64,000 bases of DNA from a virus (lineage: Duplodnaviria; Caudoviricetes), in IMG/VR virus record IMGVR_UViG_3300012157_000001, positions 1 to 64,000 of that record; one strand, 5' to 3'. The position numbers were made by a program, and so were the translations under genes. The notes under the pieces are model-generated. The model had not been told where the DNA came from and did not search any database. It saw nothing but the letters and a program-made list of their open reading frames with translations. Below, piece after piece: positions 1-31,097 of the stretch (position 1 is the first letter of the stretch; each line of letters starts with the position of its first letter).

Positions 1-492
1 GGATTTCGCGGCGGCGGCGGTGGTGGACGTGGAGGTGGCGGCGGATTTCGCGGCGGAGGTGGCGGCGGATTTCGTCACGGCGGAGGTGGACATCACGGCG
101 GACACCGCCGAGGTCGAGGCGGCATCTTCGTTGGCGGCTCTCCCGCGTACTTCGCGCCGGGCTGGGGCTACCCGTACTGGGACGACTCGTACCCGCTGCA
201 GGTGGTCGTTCCGGAGAACTGCGAGGAAAGTGTTCGATCGGGCTGCTACCAGCGCTGGGGCCACGACGCCGCGAAGATGGCGAGCTGCGTGGCGGACGGA
301 TACAAGGGTTGTGGCCTTCAGGGAATCGGGGCGCTACCTGGATTTGGTCGGATGGGCGTAGCGGTCGCGGTTGCGGCCGTCGTGGGCGGCGCCGTCGGAT
401 ACTTCGCGACGAAAAAGCCCATAGTCGGTATCGCGGGCGCCGTGCTCGGCGCTACGCTGCCCGTCCTGGCCCAATCGCTGCCCGCTCTGTAG
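1..492 (+). CDS. 5'-truncated Gly-rich membrane protein (putative virion protein)
   Basis: Frame of ORF 202..492 is open back to base 1 (GFRGGGGGGRGG...); LQGIG/LPGFG motifs and two C-terminal hydrophobic helices. Confidence 0.7.
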   Translation, partial: GFRGGGGGGRGGGGGFRGGGGGGFRHGGGGHHGGHRRGRGGIFVGGSPAYFAPGWGYPYWDDSYPLQVVVPENCEESVRSGCYQRWGHDAAKMASCVADGYKGCGLQGIGALPGFGRMGVAVAVAAVVGGAVGYFATKKPIVGIAGAVLGATLPVLAQSLPAL

Positions 493-506
493 CCCGGACA
501 GGTTTT

Positions 507-536
507 TTGCGTCGGTAGAGGGCGCGCGGGTAGTCT
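507..536 (+). promoter_or_regulatory. sigma70-like promoter
   Basis: TTGCGT-N18-TAGTCT upstream of ATG 552; same geometry recurs through the window. Confidence 0.5.
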
Positions 537-551
537 GGGCTTCGGGCCCGT

Positions 552-1088
552 ATGCCGACGCCGACGCTCACCGACTCGCCGCCAACGTGGTTCGGTCCCT
601 TCCGGGGACCCGAGACGACGATCAACACGATGCGGCAGCTGTGCCTCGGGGCACGCGGCGAACGCTCGATGCTCGTGCGCGGTGCGGTCGAGTACTGCAC
701 CCGAGGGCTCCTGAACAAGGACTACCTGTCCGAAATCCTGTCCATCCGAAACTTCGCCGCCGAGAAGGTCCGGTATCAGAACGACCCCGTGGCGCTGGAA
801 TTGGTGAAAGATCCGCAGCGCCTCATTGAAGAGGTTGCGCGGCACGGGATGGCGATCGGCGATTGCGACGATCTAGCCTTGCTGCTCGCGACGATGGGAC
901 GACAGCTCGGCAGGGAGTCGGAGTTCATCACCGTAGGCTTCGGTGCGCCGAACAATTTCTCACACGTGTTCACTCGCGTGAAGGAGCCGAAGACATCGCG
1001 CTGGATCGTGCTGGATCCGGTCGCGGGGACCAAAGAAGGCGCGATGCTCGCGCGTGTCACGACCTGGCGCGCCTGGAAGATCGATTGA
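552..1088 (+). CDS. Transglutaminase-like (papain-fold) cysteine enzyme; candidate maturation protease or cross-linker
   Basis: GDCDD (Cys), FSHVF (His), WIVLDP (Asp) in the order typical of transglutaminase-like domains. Confidence 0.8.
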   Translation: MPTPTLTDSPPTWFGPFRGPETTINTMRQLCLGARGERSMLVRGAVEYCTRGLLNKDYLSEILSIRNFAAEKVRYQNDPVALELVKDPQRLIEEVARHGMAIGDCDDLALLLATMGRQLGRESEFITVGFGAPNNFSHVFTRVKEPKTSRWIVLDPVAGTKEGAMLARVTTWRAWKID

Positions 1089-1100
1089 AGGAGCCAAACG

Positions 1101-1982
1101 ATGTACGTTCCCGTATTGCGAGGACTCGGATTGTTGGAGCCTACTGCCGGCGGACTTACCGTGCGCTCCGCGGCGACCTGCATCTCCGCCGACGAGCAGA
1201 AGGAGGCGCAGTCGAAGTGCGCGCCGCCGGTGAACCTACGCGGGTTCGGTCAGATGGCCATGGCGCCACGGACCACGCCGATGGCAGGGCGGCTCGCCGG
1301 AATGGATCCATGCGCGGCACTGAAGTTGCCCGTGTGTCCGACGCCGAAGTGTCTGGACGCGACGACGATCGCGATGATCATGGGATGCGCAACTGGTGCG
1401 CCGCCCGCGGGTGTCAACTGTTCGGATCCCTGGACACAATGGACGCTCATCGCTCTCGGGTTCTCCAAGCTTCCGTTCTGCCAGCGCCCGGCGCAGCTGA
1501 CGCTTCCCACGTGTCTCACGAAGGATCAGCTCGCAATGGTGTTCTATTGCCAGCGGTATCCGAAGTTCGACGGCCCGGACAAGGCGATGAATGCCAAGTG
1601 CTGGCTGTTCGGGCACGACACGGCGTTTTGGGGCACATACCAGAACAAGCTGCTCTGCGTGACGCCCGCGGCACCGCCAGCTCCGCCGCCGGTGCTGAGG
1701 CCTCCGCCGGTGCTGAAAGCGCCACCGGTCGTCGCGCAACCTCCGCCGGTGCTGAAAGCGCCACCGGTCGTCGTAGCGAAGCCGCCGCCTGTGCTCGTGT
1801 CGCCCCCACTGCTTGTCGCGCCACCGGTCATCGCGCCGCCCCCGCCGATGCTGGAGCCGCCGGTCCAGAAGGCGGGGATCGGCGTTGGCGGTCTGCTGGC
1901 GATTGCCGCGGGCGTTGCGGTCGGAGGCTGGTTGCTCTTCGGTAGAAAGAAGAAAAAGCTGCCGGGTCAGGCCGCCGCCTAG
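1101..1982 (+). CDS. Cys-rich, Pro-stalked, C-terminally anchored membrane protein
   Basis: SD AAGGAG; many Cys, PPPVLK repeats, TM helix then RKKKK. Confidence 0.75.
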   Translation: MYVPVLRGLGLLEPTAGGLTVRSAATCISADEQKEAQSKCAPPVNLRGFGQMAMAPRTTPMAGRLAGMDPCAALKLPVCPTPKCLDATTIAMIMGCATGAPPAGVNCSDPWTQWTLIALGFSKLPFCQRPAQLTLPTCLTKDQLAMVFYCQRYPKFDGPDKAMNAKCWLFGHDTAFWGTYQNKLLCVTPAAPPAPPPVLRPPPVLKAPPVVAQPPPVLKAPPVVVAKPPPVLVSPPLLVAPPVIAPPPPMLEPPVQKAGIGVGGLLAIAAGVAVGGWLLFGRKKKKLPGQAAA

Positions 1983-2034: not shown

Positions 2035-2805
2035 ATGCCGCACTACCCGACGTATCCCACTCAACCATTTACGGGGCAGCCTCCGTCGATGTGGTCGGAC
2101 GTCAACCGAGCGAGCGACACGCGGTACTCGTCGAGCACCGCTCCGTACTACCAGGCGAAGATCGATGCGGCGCACGGACGACACCTCGCCGGATCGGACG
2201 ACGAGGTGCAGGACGAGCAGGCGAACCAAGGGTATGCCCTGAACGAGCTCCGGCTGATGGCGGAGATGGACGACATCCAGGGCAACGGAGTCTTCGACAA
2301 CCCGCAGGTGACGCCGCCGAACATCCACGGCGACGCCGGTGTGTTTTCGGCGCGCTTCTCGCTTCCAGGTTATCTGGCGCGCGAGCGCATGTTCGCGCCG
2401 AGCGAGGTCCGCGACGTCACGACGGGTCGTCCGATCATTCCGGTGCCGAACAGCCCGGTGGCGTTCGACACGAACGAGCAGGTCGCATACATCGAGCGCG
2501 GGCTGCACCAGCCGTTCGGGCCCGTCGTCAGCGAGACGTCGCGCGGCGACATGCCCTACGAGTCGATCGTCAACGTCGTGCAGAACCCGGAGCGGATCAA
2601 GATTGGCGTGCCGTACCCGCCGCCTGCGCCTCAGTCGACGCATCCACCGCAGCCGACGGCAGGTTTCTGGCCGGCCACGGACGGAAAGAAGGCGGTCGTG
2701 CTGGTCGGCAGCGCCGCGGTCGCCGTGGGCGTGCTCTGGTTCGTTCTCAAGGGGCAGAAGAAGAAGCCGATGGCAGCGAACCGCAGGCGCGGGCGGAGGC
2801 ACTGA
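2035..2805 (+). CDS. C-terminally anchored membrane protein with basic tail
   Basis: ATG 2035 is 7 nt after TAGGTT; C-terminal TM then KKKPMAANRRRGRRH. Confidence 0.7.
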   Translation: MPHYPTYPTQPFTGQPPSMWSDVNRASDTRYSSSTAPYYQAKIDAAHGRHLAGSDDEVQDEQANQGYALNELRLMAEMDDIQGNGVFDNPQVTPPNIHGDAGVFSARFSLPGYLARERMFAPSEVRDVTTGRPIIPVPNSPVAFDTNEQVAYIERGLHQPFGPVVSETSRGDMPYESIVNVVQNPERIKIGVPYPPPAPQSTHPPQPTAGFWPATDGKKAVVLVGSAAVAVGVLWFVLKGQKKKPMAANRRRGRRH

Positions 2806-3370: not shown

Positions 3371-6300
3371 ATGTCGATGAACTCGAACGTCGGTCCGCTC
3401 GGGCAGGGCGCCGTCGCGCAGTCGCAGATGGTTGCTGCCGCAGACGTGAGCGGATTGCCGACCGGATCACTCCTGTGGGCTGACCACGCGAACGAGTTTT
3501 GGGTCGTGGTTCCGGGCGGAGTAGCGCCGATCAGTCTGCTGGCCGAGCGTGCCGGGCGTCCACCGCCGGACGGTGAGCCGGCGATTGGGATGGCTCCGGA
3601 GTTTGCGCTCGTGCGAGAAGGCGACGGCCGCGTGCCGACGCACGGCACGGCGCAACGCCACGTCATTGCATGGGTCCAGAAGGCGCAGCGAGCGCATCCG
3701 AATCCGGCGCACCTGACGCTCGACGGGCAGTTTCGATCTGGGCTTGGACGCCAGGAAGCCTCGCACCTCGCGCTGGACGGCACGTTTTCGTTCGGTGTCG
3801 GCAGCAAGGACGACCGGCACGTGTCCAATGCCCGTCGCCGCGGCGCCCGCGCGGAGGAGCATGGCGCGGTCGTCGTCACGGCCGTGTTGTACCGAGGCAT
3901 CTGGGCGGTGCCGATACGCATCGAAGTTCGGTCTCAGCCAGGGCCCGCACTGGTGCAGTTCTCGTATGAGGAGAAGCGTGCTCGCGAGACGCACGTCCGG
4001 CTGATGAGCGCACTCGCTCAGCTAGGATGGCCACTCGACGCGACGGTCACGGTGCACGTCGACCAGGGCGCGGTTGCAGGCGCAGCAGGATACGCCGGCC
4101 TCGACCTGCCCATTGCGCTCGGTATGCTCGCGCTGAAGGGCCACGTGCCCCGCGAGTCACTCCGCGGAACCATGGCGGTTGGTGAGCTGGCGCTCGACGG
4201 AAGCCTGCGACCGATTCGCGGCGCGGCCGTCGCGGCGGTCGGCGCAAACGTGGACGACGAGACTGAGCTGCTGCTGGTGCCGGCGGAAAACGAGGTAGAG
4301 GCACGGTTCCTCGCCCAAAAACCTGTCATGTCGTTCGGCAATCTGTCGGAAGTCGTGTCGTACATGCAGACACGGGAGATTCCGCACGAGCCGCCCATCG
4401 AGTTCAGGCCGTGCAAGGCTGGCTATGAGGCGCACGACCCCGGGCTTCCGCCGGAAGCGGTGCAAGCGGCACAGCGTGGCCAGAATCTACTGCTAGTCGG
4501 GCCGCCTGGCGCCGGCAAGATGATGGCGGCGCGCTACATCCACTCGACGCTTGCGCGGCTCTCGGTGGCTGACGCAAAGGAGCTCACGGAGATCTACAGC
4601 GTCGCGGGGCTACTGCAGAACCACTACGCCTGTGCGCGTCCGTTCCGTGCGCCGCATCACACCGTGAGCGAAGCGGGTCTCATTGGCGGAGGTGAGGTGG
4701 TCAGGCCTGGAGAGGTAACGCTCGCGCACCGTGGCGTACTGATGCTGGACGAGGTCACGGAGTTCCGGAAGTCGACGCTATTCCCTCTATCAAGGGCACT
4801 TCAAGAGGGCCGAGTCGTATTCAGTCGTGGCGGGACGTCCATTGGGCTTCCGTCGAGCCCTCTTGTCGTGATCGCTACCGCGCTACCATGTCCGTGTGGC
4901 CACTTCGGAACGTCGCGCTGCCGATGCAGCACGCTGGCGGTGGCTAGCCACGAGGAACGCCTCCGCGAGGTGCAGTCGTTCTTCGCGATGCTGCGAGTCG
5001 ATCTGCAGCCCTTGACGGTGGCCGAGATGACGGGAGGCGCCATGCGTCGGAACGCCAAGGGCGACATCATTTGGCAGGACAACCTGCTGACGTGGAAGTC
5101 GGTGGGTGAAGATCGATCTGGGCAGCCCCGCGGCATCGAGATGATTGCCTCGGGCGAAGGGCGCGTGCGAGCCCAGGAGATGCTGGAAGAACGGCAGAGC
5201 CCACACTTCCGTCGCAGCCCACTCTCTCAGGAGATCGACTTTCTCGAAGTGGCGCTCGGCAACGGCTGGAGCACCGTGCCGCCGGAGGACATCGGTGCGC
5301 TCACGGATGCGACGATCGTGAGCCAGGACGGCTTCGTCGGCGACGACGGGAAATGGTACCCGCACCCGGAGGTCGAGGCACCGATCGTTTACGCGCACAT
5401 GAACTACGCCGTGGAAGATCCGGTCGAGATGTGGGCCGAGGGCAAGCCGGTGTTCTGGATGGCGGACGTTCTCACTGTGAACGACGAGCAGCGCACCCGA
5501 GCGAGAGAGGAGTTGTCGAGCGCCATGGGCGAAGCCTACGAGTCGAACGCACGCAAGAACGTCACGGCCGTGATCAACGCCTTCCTCGCTGGGCGGCGGC
5601 ACAGTGAAAAGACGTGCAGCACCGACGGTTGGCGGCTGTACTCGTACGCGCTGCTGATCGCGGCGAGGGTCGACGCTAAGGGAGAACCGGTAGACGTGGG
5701 CGCACCCGGCGCGCGCGTAGTGGTGCTCGACAAGCGTCTGTCGCCGAGTGCCACGACCAGCACCCAGATCAACGCCGTGCTCTCGGCCGTTTCCGGCGCC
5801 CAGGTCGTCGACGACATGCCGTATGCCGCTCGGTATCTGCCGAATGCGGATCAGAAACCGAATGCTCGGAAGGGCCAGTTCAAGGCCCCGGCTTCACTGA
5901 GTCCCGCGGAGAAGTTTTTCTTCGAGTGGGCTGGTGGCAGCTACACCGCTGGCGCGAGCACAGCGCAACGAAAACGCGAACGTATCGATCAAGCCAAGGC
6001 GATGGCCGCGGCGGAGGCAGAGGGGGAAGATCGCGGATGGAAGGTCGAGTGGGACTACGATCAGGAGCCGGACATCTCGTGGATGGACGACGAGCAGCGC
6101 GAGGAGCTGGAGCGCGGAGCCACGGAGATGCTCGTCGCGTTGCTTCGTGACGAAAACGGCAACGTGCTAGCAAGCCTAGGCGGCGTGCACGTGAGCGCAC
6201 GTGGAGGTCGCGACCCTTACGGACGGGTTGTGGAAGCGGAGCTCATCCAGGAGGCTCTGGAAGCCGAGCGCAGCTCCGGAACCGCGATGGCGCTCAACCG

Positions 6301-6553
6301 CGGAAAGCGACGGCAGGCGCGCAACCCGGTATTCCGGCACATGGATCTCGGCGAAATCGAACAGGTACTGGGCGCTCAAGAGATCGCTAGAGTCATGTCG
6401 TCGGATCGTCCGGAGGCGCACGCGAAGTCCCGCGCCGCCGGATGGTGGGACGCGAACGAGCCGGACTACCACGACGCCTACACGAATCTCGCGCGTATGC
6501 TCAAGGCAGGCGTGCTCGACGACCTGGTCGCAGAGGCACGCGGAGCCCGCTGA
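3371..6553 (+). CDS. Multi-module protein with a degenerate ComM/YifB (Mg-chelatase-like AAA+) domain plus 4-5 unrelated modules
   Basis: GLDLPIALG, GELALDGSLRPIRG, GPPGAGK, RPFRAPHH, PGEVTLAHRGVLMLDE, PCPCG are ComM/YifB signatures (~3860-5010); modules separated by Asn/basic linkers. Confidence 0.8.
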   Translation: MSMNSNVGPLGQGAVAQSQMVAAADVSGLPTGSLLWADHANEFWVVVPGGVAPISLLAERAGRPPPDGEPAIGMAPEFALVREGDGRVPTHGTAQRHVIAWVQKAQRAHPNPAHLTLDGQFRSGLGRQEASHLALDGTFSFGVGSKDDRHVSNARRRGARAEEHGAVVVTAVLYRGIWAVPIRIEVRSQPGPALVQFSYEEKRARETHVRLMSALAQLGWPLDATVTVHVDQGAVAGAAGYAGLDLPIALGMLALKGHVPRESLRGTMAVGELALDGSLRPIRGAAVAAVGANVDDETELLLVPAENEVEARFLAQKPVMSFGNLSEVVSYMQTREIPHEPPIEFRPCKAGYEAHDPGLPPEAVQAAQRGQNLLLVGPPGAGKMMAARYIHSTLARLSVADAKELTEIYSVAGLLQNHYACARPFRAPHHTVSEAGLIGGGEVVRPGEVTLAHRGVLMLDEVTEFRKSTLFPLSRALQEGRVVFSRGGTSIGLPSSPLVVIATALPCPCGHFGTSRCRCSTLAVASHEERLREVQSFFAMLRVDLQPLTVAEMTGGAMRRNAKGDIIWQDNLLTWKSVGEDRSGQPRGIEMIASGEGRVRAQEMLEERQSPHFRRSPLSQEIDFLEVALGNGWSTVPPEDIGALTDATIVSQDGFVGDDGKWYPHPEVEAPIVYAHMNYAVEDPVEMWAEGKPVFWMADVLTVNDEQRTRAREELSSAMGEAYESNARKNVTAVINAFLAGRRHSEKTCSTDGWRLYSYALLIAARVDAKGEPVDVGAPGARVVVLDKRLSPSATTSTQINAVLSAVSGAQVVDDMPYAARYLPNADQKPNARKGQFKAPASLSPAEKFFFEWAGGSYTAGASTAQRKRERIDQAKAMAAAEAEGEDRGWKVEWDYDQEPDISWMDDEQREELERGATEMLVALLRDENGNVLASLGGVHVSARGGRDPYGRVVEAELIQEALEAERSSGTAMALNRGKRRQARNPVFRHMDLGEIEQVLGAQEIARVMSSDRPEAHAKSRAAGWWDANEPDYHDAYTNLARMLKAGVLDDLVAEARGAR

Positions 6554-6568
6554 AAGGTGAAACGAACG

Positions 6569-7537
6569 ATGCACTACTCCTACGCACCGAAGCCAGTCGC
6601 CACGACGCCGTGGGGCGCGCCGCTGCAGGGACTCGGACAGTACGAGGTTCCAAACCCGTACGTCTCGACGACGCACCCGTATCCGACGCGATACCACGGC
6701 GGCATCTGGACTCGCCCCGTCTTCGGATATCCGCGGATGGTCTCCGTGCAGTCCGTCTTCAAGTGCGACGACTTCAACGACGGCAACCCGGCGCTGCGCG
6801 GGTTGAACGGTGACTACCAGGTCGGCAATGGTGTCTTCGGTACAGCCAACGGCGGAGGCGGCGTGTTCGGGCCGAGCCTCTACGGGCTCGCCGGGCAGGC
6901 GGACGACATCGACGCAATCGCGAACTACATCTTGAACACCGGTACCGTTTCGACGGCGGCGTTCGACCTCCAGTCCCAGTTTCGGTCCTGGTACAACAAC
7001 CTCGGTCCGTACGATCGCAACTTCAGCGATGACGTGATGGCAAAGGCGACGAGCTATCGCGCTCAGTTCAACGCCGCTAACGTCTCCGGTGGTACTGCTC
7101 CGCTCCAGCCGGCAACGACGTCCTCCTCGGGTGGCGGTGGCGGTGACGCCTTCTCGAAGGCTTCGATCACGAACCTCCAGCAGCTGCTCAACGCATCGCT
7201 CGTCAAGGCAGGATACAATCCGCTCACTCCGGACGGTGCGCTCGGTCCGAGTACGTGCGGCGCGATCCAGACGTATCGGCAGATCACCGGCAATCCGCAG
7301 TCGGGCAACACGTACGACTCCTTCTGCGCAACCAAAAAGCCTTGGAATGCGCCGACCAAGGCGGGCTCTGGCGGTGGCGGCGGTACGCCGACGTACGTGC
7401 CGCCTCCCGTGGCGCCCACGACGCCACAGCCGACGATGCAGGCCGGCATGCTGGGTGCAGGTGCATGGGCGATGGTCGCCGGTGGTGTGCTCGCGATCGG
7501 CGTCGCGGTGGTCGGCAAGAAGAAAGGATGGTTCTGA
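6569..7537 (+). CDS. Membrane-anchored protein with peptidoglycan-binding-like domain
   Basis: LQQLLN..GY.PL..DG.LGPSTCGAI motif; C-terminal TM + KKK. Confidence 0.7.
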   Translation: MHYSYAPKPVATTPWGAPLQGLGQYEVPNPYVSTTHPYPTRYHGGIWTRPVFGYPRMVSVQSVFKCDDFNDGNPALRGLNGDYQVGNGVFGTANGGGGVFGPSLYGLAGQADDIDAIANYILNTGTVSTAAFDLQSQFRSWYNNLGPYDRNFSDDVMAKATSYRAQFNAANVSGGTAPLQPATTSSSGGGGGDAFSKASITNLQQLLNASLVKAGYNPLTPDGALGPSTCGAIQTYRQITGNPQSGNTYDSFCATKKPWNAPTKAGSGGGGGTPTYVPPPVAPTTPQPTMQAGMLGAGAWAMVAGGVLAIGVAVVGKKKGWF

Positions 7538-7539
7538 TC

Positions 7540-8163: not shown

Positions 8164-8166
8164 ACC

Positions 8167-23333: not shown

Positions 23334-23336
23334 AGC

Positions 23337-23564
23337 ATGTCGTTCATGACGACGCCCACCGACGTGATGACGCTCGTGCGGACGGCGCGGAAGCTCGACG
23401 GAAATCCGTTCTCGCTCGCCGGTAAGCTCGTCGGGCTTGGGGCGGACGAGCAGCGAGCCGGTATCCCAGCCTGGGCCTGGGTCCTTGCTGGCGTGGGGGT
23501 CGGAGTGGCCATCGGGTTGAAACTCGCGCCGGCCGCGCGGGAGCGCCTAAAGGCGTTCACCTGA
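23337..23564 (+). CDS. Small membrane protein
   Basis: IPAWAWVLAGVGVGVAIG TM. Confidence 0.65.
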   Translation: MSFMTTPTDVMTLVRTARKLDGNPFSLAGKLVGLGADEQRAGIPAWAWVLAGVGVGVAIGLKLAPAARERLKAFT

Positions 23565-24058: not shown

Positions 24059-24103
24059 TCCCCCGGGGCCTGTATTCGGTAACCAAGGAAAAGGAACCTT
24101 TCA

Positions 24104-24508: not shown

Positions 24509-24578
24509 TTCTCGGAGGCCCCTTAAGCATTGACCGCGCCTTCGGGCGCACAACGACCAACGGAGACGGAGAGAAGCA

Positions 24579-25127
24579 ATGTCCCTCAATCAGTCAGCGT
24601 ACCAGTCGGGAATCCTCGGCTTCGTGCCGCCTCCCGCCGGTGCGTTTCGCTCGGGCTCGCTCGGTGGTGGTCCGCCGCCAGCGCCCGCATACCACTCGGG
24701 CTCGCTCGGTGGTGGTCCGCCGCCCTCGGGCGCGTTTCGTTCGGGCGTGCTCGGCGTGTTCGGGACACCGCCGCCGTCGGGTGCGTTCAAGTCCGGCTCG
24801 CTCGGCGTGCTCGGTGCTCCGCCGCCGTCGGGCGCGGTAAAGAGCGGCATCCTCGGCTCACTCGGCGTGCCGCCGCCCGCAGGCGCATTCCGCTCGGGCT
24901 CGCTCGGGGTGCTCGGTGAGTCGTACGCGGGCCTCGGAGCGGGCGGGAGCATCATGCCGGTGTACCACCCGATCGGTGACGCGACGGCGGTCAAGCTCGC
25001 CGCGATGTACGGATTCGGCGACGCTCCGGCGCTGCCGGCGCTGCCGAAGATTCTCGTTGCTGCCGCCGGTCTCGGCGCCGTCGGCGTGATCTGGTGGGCG
25101 ATGAAGCGCCGCCACGCGAAAACCTAG
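24579..25127 (+). CDS. Repeat membrane protein (PPPxGAFxSGxLG x ~6)
   Basis: Internal ~15-aa repeats; TM + KRR. Confidence 0.7.
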   Translation: MSLNQSAYQSGILGFVPPPAGAFRSGSLGGGPPPAPAYHSGSLGGGPPPSGAFRSGVLGVFGTPPPSGAFKSGSLGVLGAPPPSGAVKSGILGSLGVPPPAGAFRSGSLGVLGESYAGLGAGGSIMPVYHPIGDATAVKLAAMYGFGDAPALPALPKILVAAAGLGAVGVIWWAMKRRHAKT

Positions 25128-25139
25128 GACGAGGTCACC

Positions 25140-25574
25140 ATGCAAGCAGGAGACATTGTTTTTTTGGGGTCCGCAGTGGTCGGGCCAAGTGGATCCTCAG
25201 TGATCCACGAGCAGCCGCCCCAGCTCGGTATTATCGAGGCACTCGACGCCGGATCGCCGCCGACGAATGTCGTTGTCGTGTGGCAGGACAGTAGGAGAAC
25301 ACAGTACAACGCGGTTGGCAGCGGCGCGACGTCGTTGCTGTTTGTAGTCGGCACTATTCCGCCGGGTACGGTACCGATCGTCGGTTTCGTCGTGCAGCCG
25401 AAGTCGGTCTCGGGCATTCCGAATCCAGGCAGTCGTCTTCAGGGTCCAGTCATTCAACAGTATGGCCTGGAGGATCCGACAGGCGCTTCGGTTGGTCAGG
25501 CCATCGTTGTCGCGACACCGATCGGTTTTCTCGTGATCGATCCGGCCGACGCCACCGTGCTGGCAGCCGCCTGA
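25140..25574 (+). CDS. 'VxWxDG' family protein, copy 3
   Basis: AGDIV...QPPQLG...VVVVWQDS. Confidence 0.7.
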   Translation: MQAGDIVFLGSAVVGPSGSSVIHEQPPQLGIIEALDAGSPPTNVVVVWQDSRRTQYNAVGSGATSLLFVVGTIPPGTVPIVGFVVQPKSVSGIPNPGSRLQGPVIQQYGLEDPTGASVGQAIVVATPIGFLVIDPADATVLAAA

Positions 25575-25585
25575 AGGAGGAACTC

Positions 25586-26020
25586 ATGGCAGCCCCAATC
25601 GCAGCAGGCACGATAGTCACCACGAAATCGGCGCTCAGTGGCTTCGAGCTAGAGAACCGCCGCCCAATCATCGGCAGATGCGAGTCCGCGATAGCGGGGG
25701 CCCCGGGAGCTCCGCCGACAGATGTGGTAGTCGCGTGGGAAGATGGCACGCGAGAGACCTATGCAAACGCAAGAGGGCTCGCGTCGGTAGGCCTACCGAG
25801 CTCGGCATCTCTGCTCGGTACGGTCATGCAATTTCTGCCCACGCAACCTCCAATTCTTGAGGCGGGCACCCGTCTTCGCGGACCCGTCGTGGTGCACGCG
25901 GAGTACTTCGAGGCCAATGGGGATCCGCTCTCTGGTGGCAACGAAGTCGCGACGCTGAAAACTCGATTCGGATACGCCTCATTTCCGGTCGTCGGTCTCG
26001 TCGCCGTACCTGGCGCCTAA
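25586..26020 (+). CDS. 'VxWxDG' family protein, copy 4
   Basis: SD AAGGAGG; VVVAWEDG; ends VPGA like copies 1-2. Confidence 0.7.
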   Translation: MAAPIAAGTIVTTKSALSGFELENRRPIIGRCESAIAGAPGAPPTDVVVAWEDGTRETYANARGLASVGLPSSASLLGTVMQFLPTQPPILEAGTRLRGPVVVHAEYFEANGDPLSGGNEVATLKTRFGYASFPVVGLVAVPGA

Positions 26021-26067: not shown

Positions 26068-26682
26068 TTGGCGGACTTGCTCGACACCCTGGGCCAAGTG
26101 GTCCTGAGCTTCCAATCTGCCCCGCTCGGGGTGCCAGGGCGCATTTGGGACGAGGTGAAGCCGTGGCTCGGTAACCTGGTGCGGCACGCGGCGCCGAAGT
26201 GGCTGCCGCGGCTCTCCTTCGGCTTCCCGTGCACCCTGCCGCGGCCCGATCGGCTCCCGTGCCCTCGACCGGCAATCGCTGCCTGTGACGCCTGTGGGCG
26301 TCCCTGCTGCCTCGACCACGCGCGGATCGACCAGTGGGGTGACGCCATCTGCTACGCCTGCTGCTGGGAGGCCCAGCAGAGGAAGCAGGCCGAGCGCGCT
26401 GCAGCGGCCGGTCATGTGCACGGGCAACCGGACCCGCGGCAGGTGCCGAACCAGCCACCGCCGATCTCCGAAAAGGATCTCGCGGCGGCGCGACGCACGC
26501 TTGGCGTAAAAAAGTCCGACGATTGGGACACCGTCGAGCGCTCGTACAAGCGGCTCCTCGCGAAGTGGCACCCAGATCGGCACCCCGGTGACGGCTACGC
26601 CGCCGCGGAGGAGAAGTTCAAGGCAGTGCGCAATGCGTTCGACTTGCTGGTGAAGGCTCGCGAACAGAAAGAAGCGGCGTGA
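26068..26682 (+). CDS. Zn-finger plus C-terminal DnaJ J-domain protein
   Basis: CxxC clusters; TLGV...YKRLLAKWHPDR...EEKFKAVRNAFDLL (HPD motif). Confidence 0.8.
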   Translation: MADLLDTLGQVVLSFQSAPLGVPGRIWDEVKPWLGNLVRHAAPKWLPRLSFGFPCTLPRPDRLPCPRPAIAACDACGRPCCLDHARIDQWGDAICYACCWEAQQRKQAERAAAAGHVHGQPDPRQVPNQPPPISEKDLAAARRTLGVKKSDDWDTVERSYKRLLAKWHPDRHPGDGYAAAEEKFKAVRNAFDLLVKAREQKEAA

Positions 26683-27362
26683 TGGCGCGAAGCAGGCGAA
26701 ACGAGAAAGTGGACTTCGGCGACGAGGATGCGGTGCTCGAAGAGATCGCGAATGCGCTCAAGGAAGATCCCGAGGACTGCTCAATCGAAGAGGACCGCGG
26801 ACTCACTGGCTTCGGTGAAGGCATCGTCTATCGCGTGAAGTGCGGGCGTATGGAGTACTGCGTCGTCGAAGACGACGATGCCGCTTACGCACTAGCGAAA
26901 GCCAGCGTCATTCAGGACTTGGAGCACGAGCCAGAAATCTTCAACAAGGACTTCATCGAGAGCCACATCGACAAGGACCGGCTGCGGCGTGACCTGCGCT
27001 CGGATGTACGAGACATGGCTGAGGAGGATCTCCGGCAGATGAGCGACCGAGAGTTCTGGCGCACGGCGGAGCGATACATCGACGTGCCAGAAGAGGACGA
27101 GGACGGTGACATGCCGGATACCGACGAGTACGTCGAGGACGTTGCCGAGAAGATGGTCGACGAGCGCCTCAAGGACCCGATGGAGTACCTGGAGGAAATC
27201 TACGGCGACGAAGCGGCGGCGCAGGCGATCAAGATCGCCGGCATCGACATCGACGCAGCTGCGGAGGACGCTGTCGACACCGACGGATGGCAGCACTTCC
27301 TCGCGCGCTACGACGGCAACAGCGAGGAGACCCGAAGCGAATTCGTCTTCTGGCGGGAGTAA
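26682..27362 (+). CDS. Highly acidic protein with N-terminal RSRRN tag
   Basis: D/E-rich throughout; starts MARSRRNE. Confidence 0.7.
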   Translation: MARSRRNEKVDFGDEDAVLEEIANALKEDPEDCSIEEDRGLTGFGEGIVYRVKCGRMEYCVVEDDDAAYALAKASVIQDLEHEPEIFNKDFIESHIDKDRLRRDLRSDVRDMAEEDLRQMSDREFWRTAERYIDVPEEDEDGDMPDTDEYVEDVAEKMVDERLKDPMEYLEEIYGDEAAAQAIKIAGIDIDAAAEDAVDTDGWQHFLARYDGNSEETRSEFVFWRE

Positions 27363-27369: not shown

Positions 27370-27966
27370 ATGAGCTACGACGTAGTGAACCCGACGTACT
27401 ATCAGACATTCCAACAAGGGACGCCGTTTCATCCCGGTGCGCCAGGCTGGACGCAGGCACCGTTTCCGACGTGGGGCGAGAATCCGAATCTTGCCGGTCG
27501 GCGACGGCTAGCGACCGACGGGCTCGGGAACGTCGTCGCGATCAGCGGCCTCGGCTCGATCGTCAAATCCAGTGACCCCGGCTTCACATGCCCGGCGGAT
27601 GCACCGCACCGGGTCGTCGACAGCCGCAGTGGCATCTCGTGTTACGGTGACTCCGAATGGGCAGTATTGAATCAGCAGGCTAAGCCACCGCCCGCGTTCG
27701 TACCCCCGGCGCCGTCGGCGTATCAGACGAGCCCGATCACGATTCCATCGGTGCCGCCGTGGCTGCGAGCACTCAGCACCATTTCCGCTGCTGCGTGCGC
27801 CTACCACGGGTACAAGCGCAACGAATCCGTGGGCTGGGCGTTCGGCTGGGCGTTCTTCGGCTCTGTCGCACCGTTCTTCGCGCTACCGGTGGCGCTCGCT
27901 CAGGGGTTCGGTAAACCGAAGAAGATGGTCTCGAACCGGCGTCAACGCCGCCGCACGCGGCGCTGA
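27370..27966 (+). CDS. Membrane protein with GLG motifs and basic tail
   Basis: DGLG, ISGLG, AYHGYKRN..GWA..W, tail SNRRQRRRTRR. Confidence 0.7.
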   Translation: MSYDVVNPTYYQTFQQGTPFHPGAPGWTQAPFPTWGENPNLAGRRRLATDGLGNVVAISGLGSIVKSSDPGFTCPADAPHRVVDSRSGISCYGDSEWAVLNQQAKPPPAFVPPAPSAYQTSPITIPSVPPWLRALSTISAAACAYHGYKRNESVGWAFGWAFFGSVAPFFALPVALAQGFGKPKKMVSNRRQRRRTRR

Positions 27967-27969
27967 GCG

Positions 27970-28104
27970 ATGTACGTTGCAACCCCGCTACCGAGGCGCC
28001 TGGGCGCCGTCCAGGAGCCGACGAGGGGCACGCCGGCATGGGTATCGCTGGTGATCCTCGGCGTGGCCGTAGCCGTTTTCGTGGGCACGCTGCGGCCTCG
28101 TTGA
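27970..28104 (+). CDS. 44-aa membrane peptide (absent from the ORF track)
   Basis: MYVATPLPRRLGAVQEPTRGTPAWVSLVILGVAVAVFVGTLRPR* fills the gap between genes. Confidence 0.55.
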   Translation: MYVATPLPRRLGAVQEPTRGTPAWVSLVILGVAVAVFVGTLRPR

Positions 28105-28156
28105 CAGCGGGCTGAAAAGTTGCGGGGTGCGCCGAGCGGGGCGTAGCCTGAGGGGC

Positions 28157-28831
28157 ATGGACTACTACCGGCCCGTCACCGCCCACGTCCCGCTCCGCCC
28201 GATGGGCGCCTCACCTGACGGCCTCGGCGCGTACTTCGCGACGACCTACACGCAAGGCATCAGTCCAAGTCCAGGTGGCGTGTTTCCGGTCGCGTACAAG
28301 CCGATCACGAGGCAGTCGACGCAGGGACTCGGGAACGGAGTCAATACGGAGCCAGGCACGAGCTCGATCGCGGTGTACCACCCGATCATTCGGCAGGCGG
28401 CGAACGGACTCGGCTGCGGTTGCTCGGCGGCCGGCGCTCCGGCTGCAGGTGTCGGTGAATTGCCGGCGTGGCTCTCCAGCACGTGGGTCAAGGTCGGTCT
28501 CGGTGCCGCAGTGCTCGGCGCGCTCTGGTTCGCGTTTGGTCGAAAGAAGAAGCAAACGGCGAACGCTCGTCGCCGGCATCGTAGGAACGCCAAGTGGTCA
28601 GGCAAGTACAAGCGCTCCCTTCCGGATTCGTCGTTTCTGTACGTTGGACCGGACGGTAAGCGACACTTCCCGTACAAGAATGCGGCGGGGCACATCGATC
28701 TGCCGCATCTTCGGAACGCGATTGCGCGGATCCCGCAGTCGAATCTGTCGGCTCTTCACCGTCATGCGCTTCAGCAAAAGGCGCAGAGGATCCTCGCTCA
28801 GCACGGCGGCTACGCGCGGGCAGCGGCGTAA
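28157..28831 (+). CDS. Membrane protein with a C-terminal small phage domain (DUF6582-like)
   Basis: Promoter TTGCGG-N18-TAGCCT 7 nt upstream; GLG motifs, TM, ANARRRHRRN, then LPDSSF...RHFPY...HLRNAIAR. Confidence 0.65.
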   Translation: MDYYRPVTAHVPLRPMGASPDGLGAYFATTYTQGISPSPGGVFPVAYKPITRQSTQGLGNGVNTEPGTSSIAVYHPIIRQAANGLGCGCSAAGAPAAGVGELPAWLSSTWVKVGLGAAVLGALWFAFGRKKKQTANARRRHRRNAKWSGKYKRSLPDSSFLYVGPDGKRHFPYKNAAGHIDLPHLRNAIARIPQSNLSALHRHALQQKAQRILAQHGGYARAAA

Positions 28832-29082
28832 TGCCTAGGCGCGCGAAGCGTCCAGTCGACGATGAGGCGCTCGTCGCCGAGTGGCTGGGCGAGCATCCGT
28901 CGGTCGAGCTGCAGGTCACCTACCTTTCGATCGATCGGCAGTGGCTCGTAGCGGCGTATCTGGTCGGATCCAGACAGATCCACGGATTCGAAGCGGACTA
29001 CCTGGCGGTCCACCAGCACGCTTCGCTCATCGCAGCAATGCTCGCGACGGTCAATGAGCTGGAGCAAAGCGGAGAGGTCTAG
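28831..29082 (+). CDS. Hypothetical protein
   Basis: TAATG coupling to previous gene. Confidence 0.5.
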   Translation: MPRRAKRPVDDEALVAEWLGEHPSVELQVTYLSIDRQWLVAAYLVGSRQIHGFEADYLAVHQHASLIAAMLATVNELEQSGEV

Positions 29083-29087
29083 GCCCC

Positions 29088-30083
29088 GTGACGTTTCTCC
29101 CTGCGCACATCGACGCCGAGTACGTGCGCCGCGCCTGCGCGGGCGGGCGCTGCAAGCCGCATCGCGCGCCTCCACTCAGTGAGTGCACTACGTTTGCGGT
29201 TCGCCGGCTGCCCGCCGGGCGGATCGCATTTCGGCGGCAGGTAACGCCGGTTGCTCAGCTGGGGGCGGTGGGGGAGTTCTACTTGCGGCCGACCTATCGG
29301 CGCGTGCCGACGTCGTGGCTGTGGGAGCGGCCCGCGTGGCGCGGCTACGCCGGCACGGAGGCGCCCCCGCCGGGGATTGAGTTTGGGGTGCCCCCGTGGC
29401 GAAGCCTAGACGGCGGCCTTGGTGCGCTCGGTCTGGGAGGCGTCGAGATTCCGGACAGGCTGACGCCGCTGACAGAAGCGCAAGCAGCTGGAGCTCTGTC
29501 GACGGCGTACAAGCGCGTTACCGGTGTTTTCCCGACACAGCGAATTCTTGAGCTCTTGATGGCGCAGACCGCCCAGGAGACCGGGAGATGGCTACGGCTG
29601 CACAACTACGGGTTCGGCAACCTAAAGGCCAGCGCGAGCAATGCGTACTACCAGGGCTTTCGGTGCTGGGAAGTCGTGAACGGCCAAACGGTTTGGTACG
29701 AAGCGGACAATCCGATGTGCCGATTCGCGGCGTACCTCACGCCGGAGGATGGCGCCGAGCAGTACATTCGGCTGCTCCAAAAGCGAGCTCACTGGTGGAA
29801 CGGGCTCCAGACGGGCACGGTGGAGGGCTTCGTATCCGGTCTCACGACGGTGCCGAAGTTTTTCACTGGAGATGCCGGTGTGTACGCCAGAAACATGAGG
29901 CAGTTCATTTCGGAGTACGCAGGCGTCGCGGCTGAGTACGCCGGTCAAGCCGCGCAGTTTGCCGGCGCGCACAAGTACGCAGCGATTGGCACCGCCGTCG
30001 GCGTATTCTCACTCACGTTCGGCAGCTGGTACCTCTACAACGCGATGCAAAAGAAACGAAAGGAGCGGTCGAAGACAACGTGA
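29088..30083 (+). CDS. Membrane-anchored glucosaminidase/muramidase (GH73/FlgJ-like); start uncertain
   Basis: AQTAQETG.W...N..GN.KA...FAAY......Y motif set; C-terminal TM + KKRK. Confidence 0.65.
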   Translation: MTFLPAHIDAEYVRRACAGGRCKPHRAPPLSECTTFAVRRLPAGRIAFRRQVTPVAQLGAVGEFYLRPTYRRVPTSWLWERPAWRGYAGTEAPPPGIEFGVPPWRSLDGGLGALGLGGVEIPDRLTPLTEAQAAGALSTAYKRVTGVFPTQRILELLMAQTAQETGRWLRLHNYGFGNLKASASNAYYQGFRCWEVVNGQTVWYEADNPMCRFAAYLTPEDGAEQYIRLLQKRAHWWNGLQTGTVEGFVSGLTTVPKFFTGDAGVYARNMRQFISEYAGVAAEYAGQAAQFAGAHKYAAIGTAVGVFSLTFGSWYLYNAMQKKRKERSKTT

Positions 30084-30487
30084 AGATCGACCTCGCGATC
30101 GTGCTCCTCGGCGCGGGCGGCGCGTTGCTGGGCTACGGGCTCTACCGAGCTTTCAGTGGCGGCGCGCAGCCCGGAGCGGAGCCACCGGCGCCAGCACAGC
30201 CGGACGCCTCCGCGCCGGAGCCTCCGGTGACCTACGGCGAGCCGAAGGTAACTACGCCTTTCCCGGCTGGGTACCGACGGCTGAAGCAGGCTGAGGTGAC
30301 TCCATCCCTCACCAGCAAGGCAACATCGATCCGGAACGCGCCAGGCTTCACGAGCATGCAGTACGGAACTGTGGTTCCAATCGGCGGAGCCACGGCGGCG
30401 CTGATCGAGCAGCACTATCACGAGCCCGGTGGAGCCATGACGCCGTGGGGCTACCACCACGGTGTCACGCTGATCCAGCAGGCGTAA
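30080..30487 (+). CDS. N-terminally anchored protein
   Basis: MKID-led Gly-rich TM, Pro stalk, EQHYH...WGYHHGVT. Confidence 0.65.
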   Translation: MKIDLAIVLLGAGGALLGYGLYRAFSGGAQPGAEPPAPAQPDASAPEPPVTYGEPKVTTPFPAGYRRLKQAEVTPSLTSKATSIRNAPGFTSMQYGTVVPIGGATAALIEQHYHEPGGAMTPWGYHHGVTLIQQA

Positions 30488-30488
30488 G

Positions 30489-31097
30489 ATGAAGATCGAC
30501 GCAACAACCGTTCTGATCGGAGTTGGCGGCGCGCTCGTCGGTTACGGCATCTATCGAGTGGTGAAGAACCGACAGACGGGGGCCTCTTCATTCTTCACTC
30601 CATCCGTCGTGACGGGACCGCGGCCGCCGGGTCTGCCGCAGTCGGAGCCTCTCATCGCGCAGCTGAAACCGTCCGTGCAGCCCAAGGCACGCGAGGTGCT
30701 TCAGCGTGCGATCAACATGGGGATCCCGCTCGTCGTCACGCAGGCGTACCGCGATCCGGCTGAGCAGGCGCGACTGTACGCGCAGGGGCGCACGACGCCG
30801 GGGGCAATCGTGACCAATGCACCGCCCGGTTGGTCGTGGCACGAGTACAAGCTTGCCTTCGACGTCGCGGTGCTCGACCAGGTCACGGGTCGACCGACGT
30901 GGCCAAACGATAACGCGCTCTGGCAGCAGATCGGTGCGGCCGGAAAAGCCTCCGGCCTGGAATGGGGTGGCGACTGGACGGGCATCGTGGACCGCCCGCA
31001 TTTCCAGTTTACGATGGGGACACCGATTGCTTCGGCGCGCGCGGGTCAACTGCCGGCGCAGCTCGCAGGATTGTGCTCTTTTCGGCTTGCCGCTTGA
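30489..31097 (+). CDS. M15-family (L-Ala-D-Glu type) peptidoglycan peptidase with N-terminal anchor
   Basis: YR..EQ..LYAQGRT.PG.IVTNA..G.S.H....AFD...WGGDW....D.PHFQ. Confidence 0.88.
   Translation: MKIDATTVLIGVGGALVGYGIYRVVKNRQTGASSFFTPSVVTGPRPPGLPQSEPLIAQLKPSVQPKAREVLQRAINMGIPLVVTQAYRDPAEQARLYAQGRTTPGAIVTNAPPGWSWHEYKLAFDVAVLDQVTGRPTWPNDNALWQQIGAAGKASGLEWGGDWTGIVDRPHFQFTMGTPIASARAGQLPAQLAGLCSFRLAA

Follow-up and report, generated by a model that had tools for sequence, protein, structure and literature searches.

What kind of virus particle do the first 31.1 kb of this DNA encode? The window that we analyzed covers the first 64 kb of an IMG/VR virus genome of 179.4 kb, which is complete, was assembled as a circle, and has ends that overlap by 33 bp. 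All credible genes at 1 to 31.1 kb lie on the + strand (as does every module feature described below), and so does nearly the whole 64-kb window. The co-oriented 31-kb block described in the first-pass annotation is therefore real, and the genome is indeed far larger than the minimum of 64 kb given there. We think it probable that positions 1 to 31.1 kb are the virion-morphogenesis module of a complete circular 179.4-kb dsDNA bacterial virus, and that it is part of a clade that is widespread, uncultured, and high in GC, has genomes of about 110 to 180 kb, and is not a group of tailed phages. We found 24 related loci, on contigs of 61 to 182 kb. The genome encodes a one-piece, bacterial tmRNA and 32 tRNAs, 31 of them arrayed at 172.7 to 178.4 kb and a tRNA-Ile apart at 114 kb. 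It also carries phage-type lysis enzymes, RecT/YqaJ recombination genes, and anti-defence-like domains.

The best candidates for shell proteins are the products of a triad of genes (250, 321, and 327 aa) that is conserved, with synteny, in all 24 related loci. The first-pass annotation had pointed to them as three soluble beta-type proteins, and all three are present at the positions it gave. The 250-aa protein (18719..19471, with 18719 as the true start) is encoded by the clade's most conserved gene, found in all 24 loci at 50 to 93% identity, and is a candidate capsid protein. Its family, which has a mean column identity of 64% in alignment A7, comprises at least 752 database clusters, all without a name or a Pfam domain, and a comparison with phage gave no match at E-values up to 10. 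The 327-aa protein (21401..22384), a candidate second capsid or penton protein, is likewise present in 24 of 24 loci (27 to 72% identity), its gene directly following that of the 321-aa protein in most of them; it has no Pfam, PHROG, or PDB sequence match.

The 321-aa protein (19638..20603) is the candidate major capsid protein. It is found in 24 of 24 loci and has more than 540 homologs, none with a Pfam domain or a name. Its AF2 model (pLDDT 85.4, pTM 0.84) consists of a long N-terminal helix (residues 4 to 63) and a core folded as a single jelly roll, into which two long loops are inserted. Viral capsid proteins with vertical jelly rolls prevailed in the fold searches. The top Foldseek matches were SH1, SPV1, and HHIV-2 (probability 0.80 to 0.84 for SH1 and SPV1), with none reaching an E-value below 1e-3, and a first, weaker model pointed to the same viral jelly rolls. 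The VIA Z scores were 8.5 for PBCV-1, 7.7 for SH1, 7.7 for SPV1 (136 of 178 residues), 7.4 for HHIV-2, and 7.1 for HCIV-1, and the nonviral jelly roll PHM tied with them at 8.0 to 8.1. From the model, we confidently assign the single jelly-roll fold that the first-pass annotation had anticipated, and among viral proteins it is capsid proteins of internal-membrane viruses that match best; with scores at the common-fold level (Z of 6 to 8.5), the protein is a candidate for the capsid role.

Could the virus nevertheless be a tailed phage (Caudoviricetes) that has diverged very far? Pfam and PHROGs would then fail to recognize its HK97 capsid, portal, terminase, and tail genes, the jelly rolls would be decoration, cement, or fiber proteins, and lysis or superinfection exclusion would be the task of the membrane proteins. 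The size (179 kb), the tRNA array, and the tmRNA are together typical of jumbo tailed phages, look-alike Atlas clusters are automatically classed as "Uroviricota," and jelly rolls are also known as phage cement or baseplate parts, with Pam1, KHP40, and KP1 among our structural matches. However, no terminase, portal, HK97 capsid, or tail gene and no FtsK/A32 ATPase was found in the whole 179-kb genome by Pfam (about 235 ORFs), PHROGs (ORFs of at least 300 aa left unexplained by Pfam searched singly, the rest in bulk with the best 25 families listed), or six six-frame family searches at E-values up to 1 to 10. What the first-pass annotation reported for 64 kb thus holds for the entire genome, and profile searches found no Caudoviricetes head-tail-terminase module, and no Terminase_6N, in five relatives either. 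These negative results for hallmark genes come from profile searches. Among phage genes, terminase is usually the one most readily recognized, and once the annotated ORFs are set aside, too few large unexplained ORFs are left to accommodate TerL, portal, sheath or tape measure, and baseplate. A collagen-like fiber gene does match "tail fiber" PHROGs, but the match comes from a Gly-X-Y repeat and appears with either strand, and the clade's most conserved genes are the triad rather than any HK97-like gene. Hence, we regard a tailed phage as quite unlikely. Left without any explanation were a protein of 934 aa (168751-171555) and several others of 370 to 400 aa; they count against the tailless reading, and the 934-aa protein speaks for a tailed phage.

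At the sequence level, a transglutaminase-like structural protein shared with SSIP-1 is all that ties the virus to any cultured membrane phage. The protein encoded at 552..1088 (papain-fold Cys-His-Asp; Pfam Transglut_core, E-value of 2.2e-5) is homologous to gp34 of SSIP-1, annotated as "structural protein" (26% identity over 143 aa, E-value of 2.3e-8), and is present in 5 of 5 related genomes at 48 to 61% identity. It is a core clade gene and encodes a candidate virion or maturation protease. A motif, h-x-G-[L/F]-G, is overrepresented in the module (20 observed versus 3.2 ± 1.7 expected) and in the relatives (179 versus 42) and lies about 20 to 25 residues from many N termini. The cysteine protease of adenovirus cuts virion precursors at (M/I/L)-x-G-x-G-type sites. 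The matching motif and the conserved papain-fold enzyme suggest that virion proteins of the present virus may be matured by proteolysis in a similar manner.

Does the virus then belong to the PRD1/P23-77/SH1 assemblage (Varidnaviria in the broad sense), as a much enlarged true member that packages its DNA with an ATP-driven motor at a unique vertex? The jelly-roll matches to SH1, HHIV-2, HCIV-1, and P23-77 VP17 fit such a relationship, as do the SSIP-1 gp34 homolog and the adjoining candidate capsid genes, an arrangement shared with P23-77 and SSIP-1, each of which encodes two capsid protein types. Against it, the FtsK/A32-type packaging ATPase expected of a relative of PRD1, PM2, or P23-77 is absent by every test. 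FtsK/HerA and A32 gave no match in six frames at E-values up to 10, canonical Walker A motifs occur only in DnaB and its loader and in no spare ORF, and the five relatives also lack a packaging ATPase, with no FtsK match above the cutoff. The sole AAA+ protein of the module, a ChlI/ComM-type protein of 1,060 aa with long C-terminal extensions (3371..6553; Pfam Mg_chelatase, E-value of 1.3e-45; ChlI, E-value of 1e-10), is accessory and not core, its AAA+ core being found in only 1 of 5 related genomes. Moreover, the triad profiles match nothing in SSIP-1, and the kinship to PRD1, PM2, and P23-77 proposed in the first-pass annotation found no sequence or profile link beyond common-fold structural scores. 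We therefore consider it improbable that the virus is a member of this assemblage whose ATPase has escaped detection. To our knowledge, every icosahedral dsDNA phage with an internal membrane that has been cultured has a gene for a packaging ATPase, and this universality counts against our preferred reading of a tailless virus outside the assemblage.

The module is rich in tail-anchored membrane proteins. With a strict rule (a hydrophobic 18-mer within the final 75 aa and three or more K/R after it), a basic C-terminal tail behind such an anchor was found in 14 of 36 module ORFs versus 2 of the 206 ORFs elsewhere in the genome (Fisher P = 2e-11). Four further proteins (15343-16110, 20611-20871, 28157-28831, and 29088-30083) fit the architecture by eye, so the true number is about 14 to 19; the Pro stalks and the architecture first noticed in this region are real, but the original count of more than 20 was slightly too high. 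The related loci have 2 to 7 such proteins each. The protein at 1101..1982, with relatives in 7 of 24 loci, has N-proximal LRGLG/LRGFG motifs, a polyproline-type stalk of about 65 aa (PPxVxx repeats), a C-terminal transmembrane (TM) helix, and a KKKK tail, and that at 2035..2805 has the basic tail KKK...RRRGRRH. Three proteins at 6557..9786 (6557-7537, 7540-8163, and 8167-9786) combine peptidoglycan-binding-like repeats (weak PG_binding_1, E-value of 0.006), Pro-rich stalks, and KKK tails, each with the h-x-G-[LF]-G motif at residue 20 to 23. Four small membrane proteins are encoded at 10800..12328 (10800-11132, 11137-11394, 11421-11993, and 11990-12328, the last kept in 16 of 24 loci). An Ala-rich protein of 791 aa (12911..15286; 11 of 24 loci) with two internal TM segments, one C-terminal TM segment, and YAGLG at residue 23 might be a membrane scaffold or tape-measure-like protein. 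The tail-anchored protein at 15343..16110 has MAGFG/LLGLG motifs at residues 22 to 30. Two small tail-anchored proteins lie between the triad genes (20611..21385), a position from which they are absent in most relatives; one of them (20885-21385) has a PG_binding_1 domain (E-value of 5e-12). Two conserved membrane proteins follow the triad (22560..23564), one of 257 aa, tail anchored and ending in an RRKRKRR tail (17 of 24 loci), and one of 75 aa (18 of 24), and further membrane and basic proteins are encoded at 27370..30083, where the 29088-30083 product has a C-terminal TM helix and a basic tail. No N-terminal signal-like segment was found in the tail-anchored set of the module. The topology is puzzling, which counts against our reading: proteins with large N-terminal domains, no signal peptide, and a TM helix ahead of a strongly basic tail are at odds with ordinary bacterial membrane insertion.

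Upstream of the triad, and directly so in 18 of 24 loci, lies the gene for a tripartite polybasic protein of 746 aa (16327..18567). With 17% Arg, it is the Arg-rich core protein of the first-pass annotation. Residues 1 to 425 contain about 160 K/R and 1 D/E in tandem repeats, residues 430 to 545 are hydrophobic, and the C terminus carries Gly-motif repeats. Pfam, PHROG, and phage searches gave no match. The protein is a candidate genome-condensing protein tied to the membrane. Its functional analogues in adenovirus would be the Arg-rich DNA-condensing core proteins VII, V, and mu inside a jelly-roll capsid; adenovirus, however, has no homology to this virus and differs by its double-jelly-roll hexon, its packaging ATPase, and its lack of a membrane.

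These membrane and basic proteins also suit a nontailed virus whose jelly rolls do not form the shell, for example an enveloped or pleomorphic virus with an external membrane, peptidoglycan-binding tail-anchored spikes, jelly rolls as spike or matrix proteins, and a nucleoprotein core. Long Pro-rich stalks with peptidoglycan-binding ectodomains would be well placed on an outer envelope, enveloped nucleocapsids would agree with both the polybasic nucleoprotein and the missing packaging motor, and the jelly-roll similarity is at the fold level only and equal to that of noncapsid jelly rolls. We nevertheless judge this arrangement unlikely: among viral proteins, shell proteins of internal-membrane viruses match best; extreme conservation and an unvarying length, as seen in the 250-aa and 321-aa proteins, are typical of proteins that build lattices; and SSIP-1, with its homologous transglutaminase-like structural protein, has an internal membrane.

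At the end of the module, two proteins with paralogous N-terminal anchors (MKID...) are encoded at 30080..31097. The 30489-31097 product is an M15 d-Ala-d-Ala peptidase (Peptidase_M15_4, E-value of 2.6e-12; VanY, E-value of 4.4e-8) that also matches PHROG endolysin families and, by these similarities, is a predicted cell wall hydrolase for entry or lysis. A glucosaminidase-like region at 29088-30083 (Glucosaminidase, E-value of 0.022) is below the cutoff. Together with the PG_binding_1 protein between the triad genes, these matches bear out the muralytic enzymes seen earlier. Of the remaining genes, an HNH endonuclease of lower GC3 (9830..10810) has no counterpart among the 24 related loci and is probably a mobile insertion in the module, and a conserved soluble protein of 194 aa (12325..12909; 17 of 24 loci, 31 to 72% identity) falls into no family of Pfam or PHROGs. 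At 23645..26020 lie four beta-rich paralogs of about 140 aa (23645, 24104, 25140, and 25586) and a Gly/Pro-repeat tail-anchored protein (24579-25127), all with counterparts in the closest relatives only. At 26068..27362, a DnaJ-domain protein with a Cys-rich N-terminal part (26068-26682; Pfam DnaJ, E-value of 6.7e-11), kept in 21 of 24 loci, precedes a very acidic 227-aa protein (26679-27362; 30% D+E), and we infer that both are candidate assembly chaperones.

With so many membrane or wall-binding products, might the DNA be a large plasmid-like element and not a virus, its module encoding cell envelope proteins? Its classification as a virus is automatic, and it is known from sequence alone. 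However, it has no conjugation or partition ATPases, carries phage-type lysis enzymes, RecT/YqaJ, anti-defence-like domains, and a tRNA array with a tmRNA, and encodes a jelly roll resembling capsid proteins as well as a protein homologous to one from the SSIP-1 virion, and we give this explanation very little credence.

Among known systems, the nearest architectural analogue of this tailless virus appears to be the archaeal virus SPV1 (Sulfolobus polyhedral virus 1, Portogloboviridae; PDB accession number 6oj0), rather than P23-77. SPV1 has a single-jelly-roll shell, an inner membrane, sub-capsomer membrane proteins, and a nucleoprotein core, and no ATPase among its assignable ORFs (PMC8459092); the design proposed here agrees with it in each of these points. 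Like the virus described here, it has circular dsDNA and no recognizable packaging ATPase, and its shell protein VP4 aligns with our 321-aa model at a Z of 7.5 to 7.7 over 133 to 136 of 178 residues. Further likenesses are an inner membrane with many small membrane proteins and a basic protein in the nucleoprotein core, both predicted here from genes, and the CRISPR-type arrays on SPV1's viral genome. SPV1 differs by its 20-kb genome and hyperthermophilic archaeal host (versus 179 kb with bacterial signatures, namely tmRNA and peptidoglycan enzymes), it has no sequence similarity, and the core protein here is a membrane-linked polybasic protein of 746 aa. SSIP-1, with an internal membrane and two capsid protein types (PMC6356626), shares the bacterial host and circular dsDNA genome, and several of its proteins end in a C-terminal hydrophobic stretch. 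It differs by the virion P-loop ATPase gp40, absent here, by a genome four times smaller, by C-terminal tails that are not strongly basic, and by the lack of a giant polybasic protein, and profiles of our three capsid candidates find nothing there (E-value above 0.07). The Sphaerolipoviridae and Matsushitaviridae (SH1, HHIV-2, HCIV-1, and P23-77) have adjacent genes for vertical single-jelly-roll capsid proteins and an internal membrane and gave the top Foldseek matches to the 321-aa model as well as Z scores of 6.3 to 7.7, a similarity at the fold level only. They encode an FtsK/HerA-type packaging ATPase in genomes of about 17 to 31 kb, neither of which applies here.

How might such a virion be built? 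We hypothesize that the adjacent triad forms an outer protein shell; of the three proteins, at least that of 321 aa is a single jelly roll of the vertical-capsid type. A lipid membrane of the virion would be populated by about 15 to 20 tail-anchored proteins, with Pro-rich stalks and peptidoglycan-binding or other ectodomains directed toward the shell or the outside and Lys/Arg tails toward the genome. The 746-aa protein, with an N-terminal arm of about +160 charge followed by hydrophobic segments, may condense the DNA and tie it to the membrane. Because no packaging ATPase was found, the DNA may be encapsidated as it is in SPV1, through condensation into a nucleoprotein that is then wrapped, instead of by an ATP-driven portal motor. 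Virion proteins may then mature by adenovirus-protease-like cleavage, and the membrane-anchored M15 peptidase and the peptidoglycan-binding proteins could handle the host wall at entry or exit.

The large tailless membrane virus first proposed for this DNA thus stands with respect to its size, its jelly roll, and the lack of tailed-phage genes, but not its P23-77-type kinship, while the presence and position of its membrane are predicted from gene content. As far as its genes tell, the virus seems to unite a jelly-roll shell, a membrane rich in tail-anchored proteins, and a protein of huge size that coats the DNA; so far, this design is known in small viruses only.

We consider it fairly probable that this genome belongs to a tailless, membrane-containing virus with a jelly-roll capsid. 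The candidate capsid proteins are a triad of 250, 321 and 327 aa (window 18719-19471, 19638-20603 and 21401-22384). Local tblastn recovered all three genes in each of 24 loci, with their order unchanged and mostly side by side; the loci lie on 21 IMG/VR contigs of 61 to 182 kb, one NCBI contig of 137 kb and two MAG contigs, which are labelled Pseudomonadota and Gemmatimonadota. Conservation is highest for the 250-aa protein (50 to 93% identity across loci). Metagenomic homologs of constant length form at least 752 clusters for this protein and more than 540 for the 321-aa protein; the 327-aa protein, which is more divergent, has 39. A 746-aa polybasic protein, a protein with a DnaJ domain, several membrane proteins and two soluble ones are also kept, in 16 to 21 loci. 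The triad had no match in Pfam, PHROG or phage databases, blastn and tblastn searches of 50,697 phage records with the 6-kb core and the 746-aa and 250-aa proteins gave no meaningful match, and the 327-aa family had no hit among PDB sequences. Profile-profile comparison detected no paralogy among the three families.

The first-pass annotation had suggested that the triad proteins might be jelly rolls, and structure prediction bore this out for the 321-aa protein. An initial model of the whole protein from a shallow alignment had a pLDDT of 57, and its N-terminal helix dominated the fold search. With remote relatives from an exhaustive profile search (111 clusters at 50% identity), a deeper alignment of the core alone gave a confident model (pLDDT 85.4, pTM 0.84). 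It shows a single jelly-roll sandwich into which two long loops are inserted; in the full protein, a helix of 60 residues comes before this core. The best PDB matches in Foldseek were SH1 capsid proteins, SPV1 and HHIV-2, with probabilities of 0.80 to 0.84 and E values above 1e-3. VIA-align gave Z scores of 8.5 for PBCV-1, 7.7 for SH1, 7.7 for SPV1 VP4 (136 of 178 residues at 3.9 Å), 7.4 for both SGIV and HHIV-2, 7.1 for HCIV-1, 7.0 for STIV, 6.4 to 6.7 for vaccinia D13, 6.3 for P23-77 VP17 and, over one barrel only, 5.5 for PRD1 P3. The structural alignment with SPV1 VP4 has 10 to 12% identity and no sequence match, and shape searches of BFVD and the ESM Atlas returned no named close relative. 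There is good reason to infer a capsid role from the conservation of the protein, its synteny and the kinds of viral proteins that it matches; we do not put the case higher because the viral Z scores are middling and are equalled by the non-viral jelly roll PHM (Z 8.0 to 8.1). For the 250-aa protein, an Atlas feature search gave sub-threshold leads only, of the PRD1 P2/P3 type (0.75 to 0.77), to which we attach no weight. A complex prediction with the 321-aa core scored 0.00 ('no answer'), which is neutral on binding.

The triad sits in a module of proposed particle-building genes (window 1-31097) with an unusual set of membrane proteins. A strict rule for tail anchors, which asks for a hydrophobic 18-mer in the C-terminal 75 residues with three or more Lys/Arg after it, selects 14 of the 36 ORFs in the first 31.1 kb and 2 of the 206 in the remaining genome (Fisher P = 2e-11); by eye, four or five additional module ORFs fit the pattern. 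The first-pass annotation was thus correct about this architecture, which is real and specific to the block, and slightly overcounted in reporting more than 20 such proteins. Many of the anchors are preceded by Pro-rich stalks, and no N-terminal signal-like segment was found in the tail-anchored proteins. Their topology is a puzzle, since large signal-less N-terminal domains that precede a transmembrane helix and a highly basic tail are at odds with normal bacterial inner-membrane insertion. The other traits ascribed to the module from the sequence were also recovered. Nearly all genes of the window lie on the plus strand, and the supposed Arg-rich core protein is the tripartite 746-aa polybasic product of window 16327-18567, with about 160 Lys/Arg, one acidic residue and tandem repeats in residues 1 to 425, a hydrophobic stretch at residues 430 to 545 and a C terminus with short Gly-containing repeats. 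The cell-wall functions comprise an M15 peptidase (E = 2.6e-12), a PG_binding_1 domain (E = 5e-12), PG-binding repeats with weaker matches and a glucosaminidase-like region that stays below threshold. Two pairs of paralogous, beta-rich proteins, each of about 140 aa (window 23645-26020), may be variable spike or decoration proteins, since only the closest relatives share them. An HNH endonuclease inside the module (window 9830-10810) has a GC3 of 0.64 against about 0.8, was not found in the related loci and is probably a recent mobile insertion; many more HNH genes lie elsewhere in the genome.

A short motif recurs in the module and links it to possible processing of virion proteins. The pattern [MLIFYV]-x-G-[LMF]-G occurs 20 times against 3.2 ± 1.7 in shuffled sequences (about six-fold), at five times the density of the remaining genome, and lies at residues 20 to 31 in eight tail-anchored proteins; in many proteins of this kind the distance from the N terminus is about 20 to 25 residues. 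The enrichment is a clade-wide feature, with 179 occurrences against 42 expected in the related loci. The pattern fits the type of consensus recognized by adenovirus protease, which by analogy suggests that short N-terminal leaders are removed at these sites; we consider the motif a candidate cleavage or sorting tag. The tail-anchored set with its N-proximal Gly motif poses a concrete and testable problem of membrane biogenesis. The module also encodes a transglutaminase-like (papain-fold) protein (window 552-1088), which is present in five of five related genomes about 13 to 14 kb upstream of the triad and is homologous to gp34 of SSIP-1, an annotated structural protein.

What does the genome offer for packaging and for a tail? 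About 235 ORFs were compared with Pfam, the large ones individually and the others in bulk, and with PHROGs, individually for Pfam-unexplained ORFs of at least 300 aa and in bulk for the remainder; six-frame translations were searched with the profiles Terminase_6N, TerL_ATPase, Phage_capsid, Phage_portal, FtsK_SpoIIIE and Pox_A32. All of these are sequence-profile methods, which could miss a very divergent HK97 fold. Neither the six-frame searches with PF03237 and PF03354, at E values up to 1 to 10, nor Pfam and PHROGs on the sizeable ORFs found a large terminase. The same holds for the HK97 capsid and the portal (PF05065 and PF04860 in six frames, Pfam and PHROGs on the sizeable ORFs), and Pfam and PHROGs found no tail component besides 'tail fiber' matches of one collagen-like ORF. 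The first-pass annotation had seen no terminase, portal, HK97 capsid or tail gene in 64 kb, and by profile searches this extends to the whole 179,401-bp contig. The FtsK/A32-like ATPase that it proposed to look for was not found either (PF01580 and PF04665 in six frames, E up to 10), and canonical Walker A motifs occur only in DnaB and the DnaB loader. In the five related genomes, four of which are rated complete, PF03237 had no match and FtsK had none above the cut-off, with one 14.8-bit P-loop match below it. The large ORFs that still lack an explanation, among them one of 934 aa, are too few to build a head-tail machine.

Several candidates for the missing functions were rejected. The tail fiber match of the collagen-like ORF (contig about 129454-130470, minus strand) came from its Gly-X-Y repeat alone and on both strands; the protein has a C-terminal beta domain and could be a vertex or surface fibre. 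A 693-aa ORF considered as a terminase is a relative of Cas12m (contig 146424-148505, minus strand; PDB 23vw, E = 2.1e-8) and may represent a minimal type V system carried by the virus. In two related loci (L021 and L024), ORFs with a P-loop close to the triad proved to encode DnaB-type helicases. A 1,060-aa AAA+ protein of the ChlI/ComM type with long modular C-terminal extensions (window 3371-6553) was rejected as the packaging motor of the clade, as only one of the five relatives has its AAA+ core; parts of its C-terminal region match separate small ORFs in two others.

The contig ends overlap by 33 bp, indicating a circular or permuted assembly of an IMG/VR virus record with a completeness rating of 100% and a GC content of 64.6%. 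An array of 31 tRNAs lies near the far contig end and a further tRNA-Ile at 114 kb. The array and a one-piece standard tmRNA (Rfam RF00023, 86.7 bits; tag ANDNSTALPIAA) occupy contig 165355-178357 and, read across the circular junction, directly precede the module. The presence of a tmRNA is a pointer to a bacterial host. Outside the module are genes for DnaB and a DnaC-like loader, for RecT and YqaJ, for a tyrosine integrase and an SNF2 helicase, and for ThyX, methyltransferases, glycosyltransferases and endolysins. A DUF2201 metallopeptidase/VWA protein adjoining a MoxR-like ATPase (contig 116759-120253, minus strand; phrog_1297, E = 2.2e-24) forms a chaperone-type pair. An N6/N4 DNA methyltransferase is fused to an Mrr-type restriction endonuclease domain (window 53178-54962; Pfam E = 9.8e-38 and 3.9e-6), and an Apiosidase-like glycoside hydrolase with a collagen-binding-type C-terminal domain (window 57554-59032; E = 1.5e-40 and 1.1e-9) could be a depolymerase for host surface polysaccharide. 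Directly 3' of the module is a CRISPR-like repeat array (window 31241-32739) with a 73-bp period at 31534-31717 in TRF and no cas genes beside it. In the bulk scan, one window ORF matched the Acb2/Tad1 hairpin domain (E = 1.2e-4), a family of anti-CBASS/Thoeris sponge proteins, and another matched DUF4259.

The combination of features does not place the virus in an established group. The archaeal virus SPV1 has a single-jelly-roll shell, an inner membrane with many small proteins and a nucleoprotein core, and lacks a recognizable packaging ATPase (PMC8459092). The gene content of our virus is compatible with this design, through the jelly roll, the tail-anchored proteins, the polybasic protein and the lack of a detectable packaging ATPase. 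However, SPV1 has a genome of about 20 kb and a Sulfolobales host, whereas the genome described here is nine times larger, at 179 kb, and is that of a bacterial virus with a bacterial tmRNA, peptidoglycan enzymes and no proteins related to SPV1 in sequence. The closest cultured bacterial virus is SSIP-1, which has an internal membrane and two types of capsid protein (PMC6356626). The two viruses have the structural protein gp34 in common, here as the transglutaminase-like homolog; SSIP-1 has a virion ATPase, whereas none was found here, and the triad has no similarity to SSIP-1. PRD1-type viruses have a double-jelly-roll major capsid protein; of the three candidates here, the 321-aa protein is the one modelled, as a single jelly roll. 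They share with Sphaerolipoviridae/Matsushitaviridae a packaging ATPase of the FtsK/HerA (A32-like) type. SH1 and P23-77 build their capsomers from two adjacent vertical single jelly rolls; here, one of three adjacent proteins is modelled as a jelly roll, with SH1 and HHIV-2 among its best matches. The proposal of a larger relative of PRD1 and P23-77 was right in expecting a genome of 64 kb or more, but kinship to these families is not supported, and the packaging ATPase expected of such a relative was not found by the profile searches. Profile searches likewise gave no large terminase, HK97 capsid, portal or tail genes as in Caudoviricetes. Membership in Caudoviricetes, the PRD1 type, Sphaerolipoviridae/Matsushitaviridae or Portogloboviridae is not supported, because defining features were not found or are unconfirmed. 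The full-text literature that was searched, which lacks most subscription papers, yielded no description of such viruses.

In summary, we tentatively propose an undescribed major lineage of non-tailed bacterial viruses of 110 to 180 kb, a reading to which we give somewhat less than even weight and which would rank at family level or well above. In its virions, a shell of single jelly rolls would enclose a membrane that carries many tail-anchored proteins, and virion proteins would be matured by adenovirus-like proteolysis. No packaging motor would be needed to encapsidate the DNA, which would condense on a giant, protamine-like protein tethered to the membrane; we rate this mechanism as somewhat less likely than not. 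To our knowledge, every bacterial virus known with a genome above about 45 kb is a tailed phage, whereas membrane-containing phages with jelly-roll capsids are regarded as small (no more than about 44 kb). If our reading is true, a widespread clade, represented by hundreds of metagenomic protein clusters, would break this size limit, and standard marker sets built on terminase, portal and HK97 capsid would overlook a whole class of large phages. The clade would be to bacteria what the large membrane-containing viruses are to eukaryotes, as well as an analogue of SPV1 on a larger scale, and encapsidation based on nucleoprotein, with no motor, could be studied in a bacterial model. It would also bear on the evolution of large jelly-roll capsids and internal membranes across the three domains of life.
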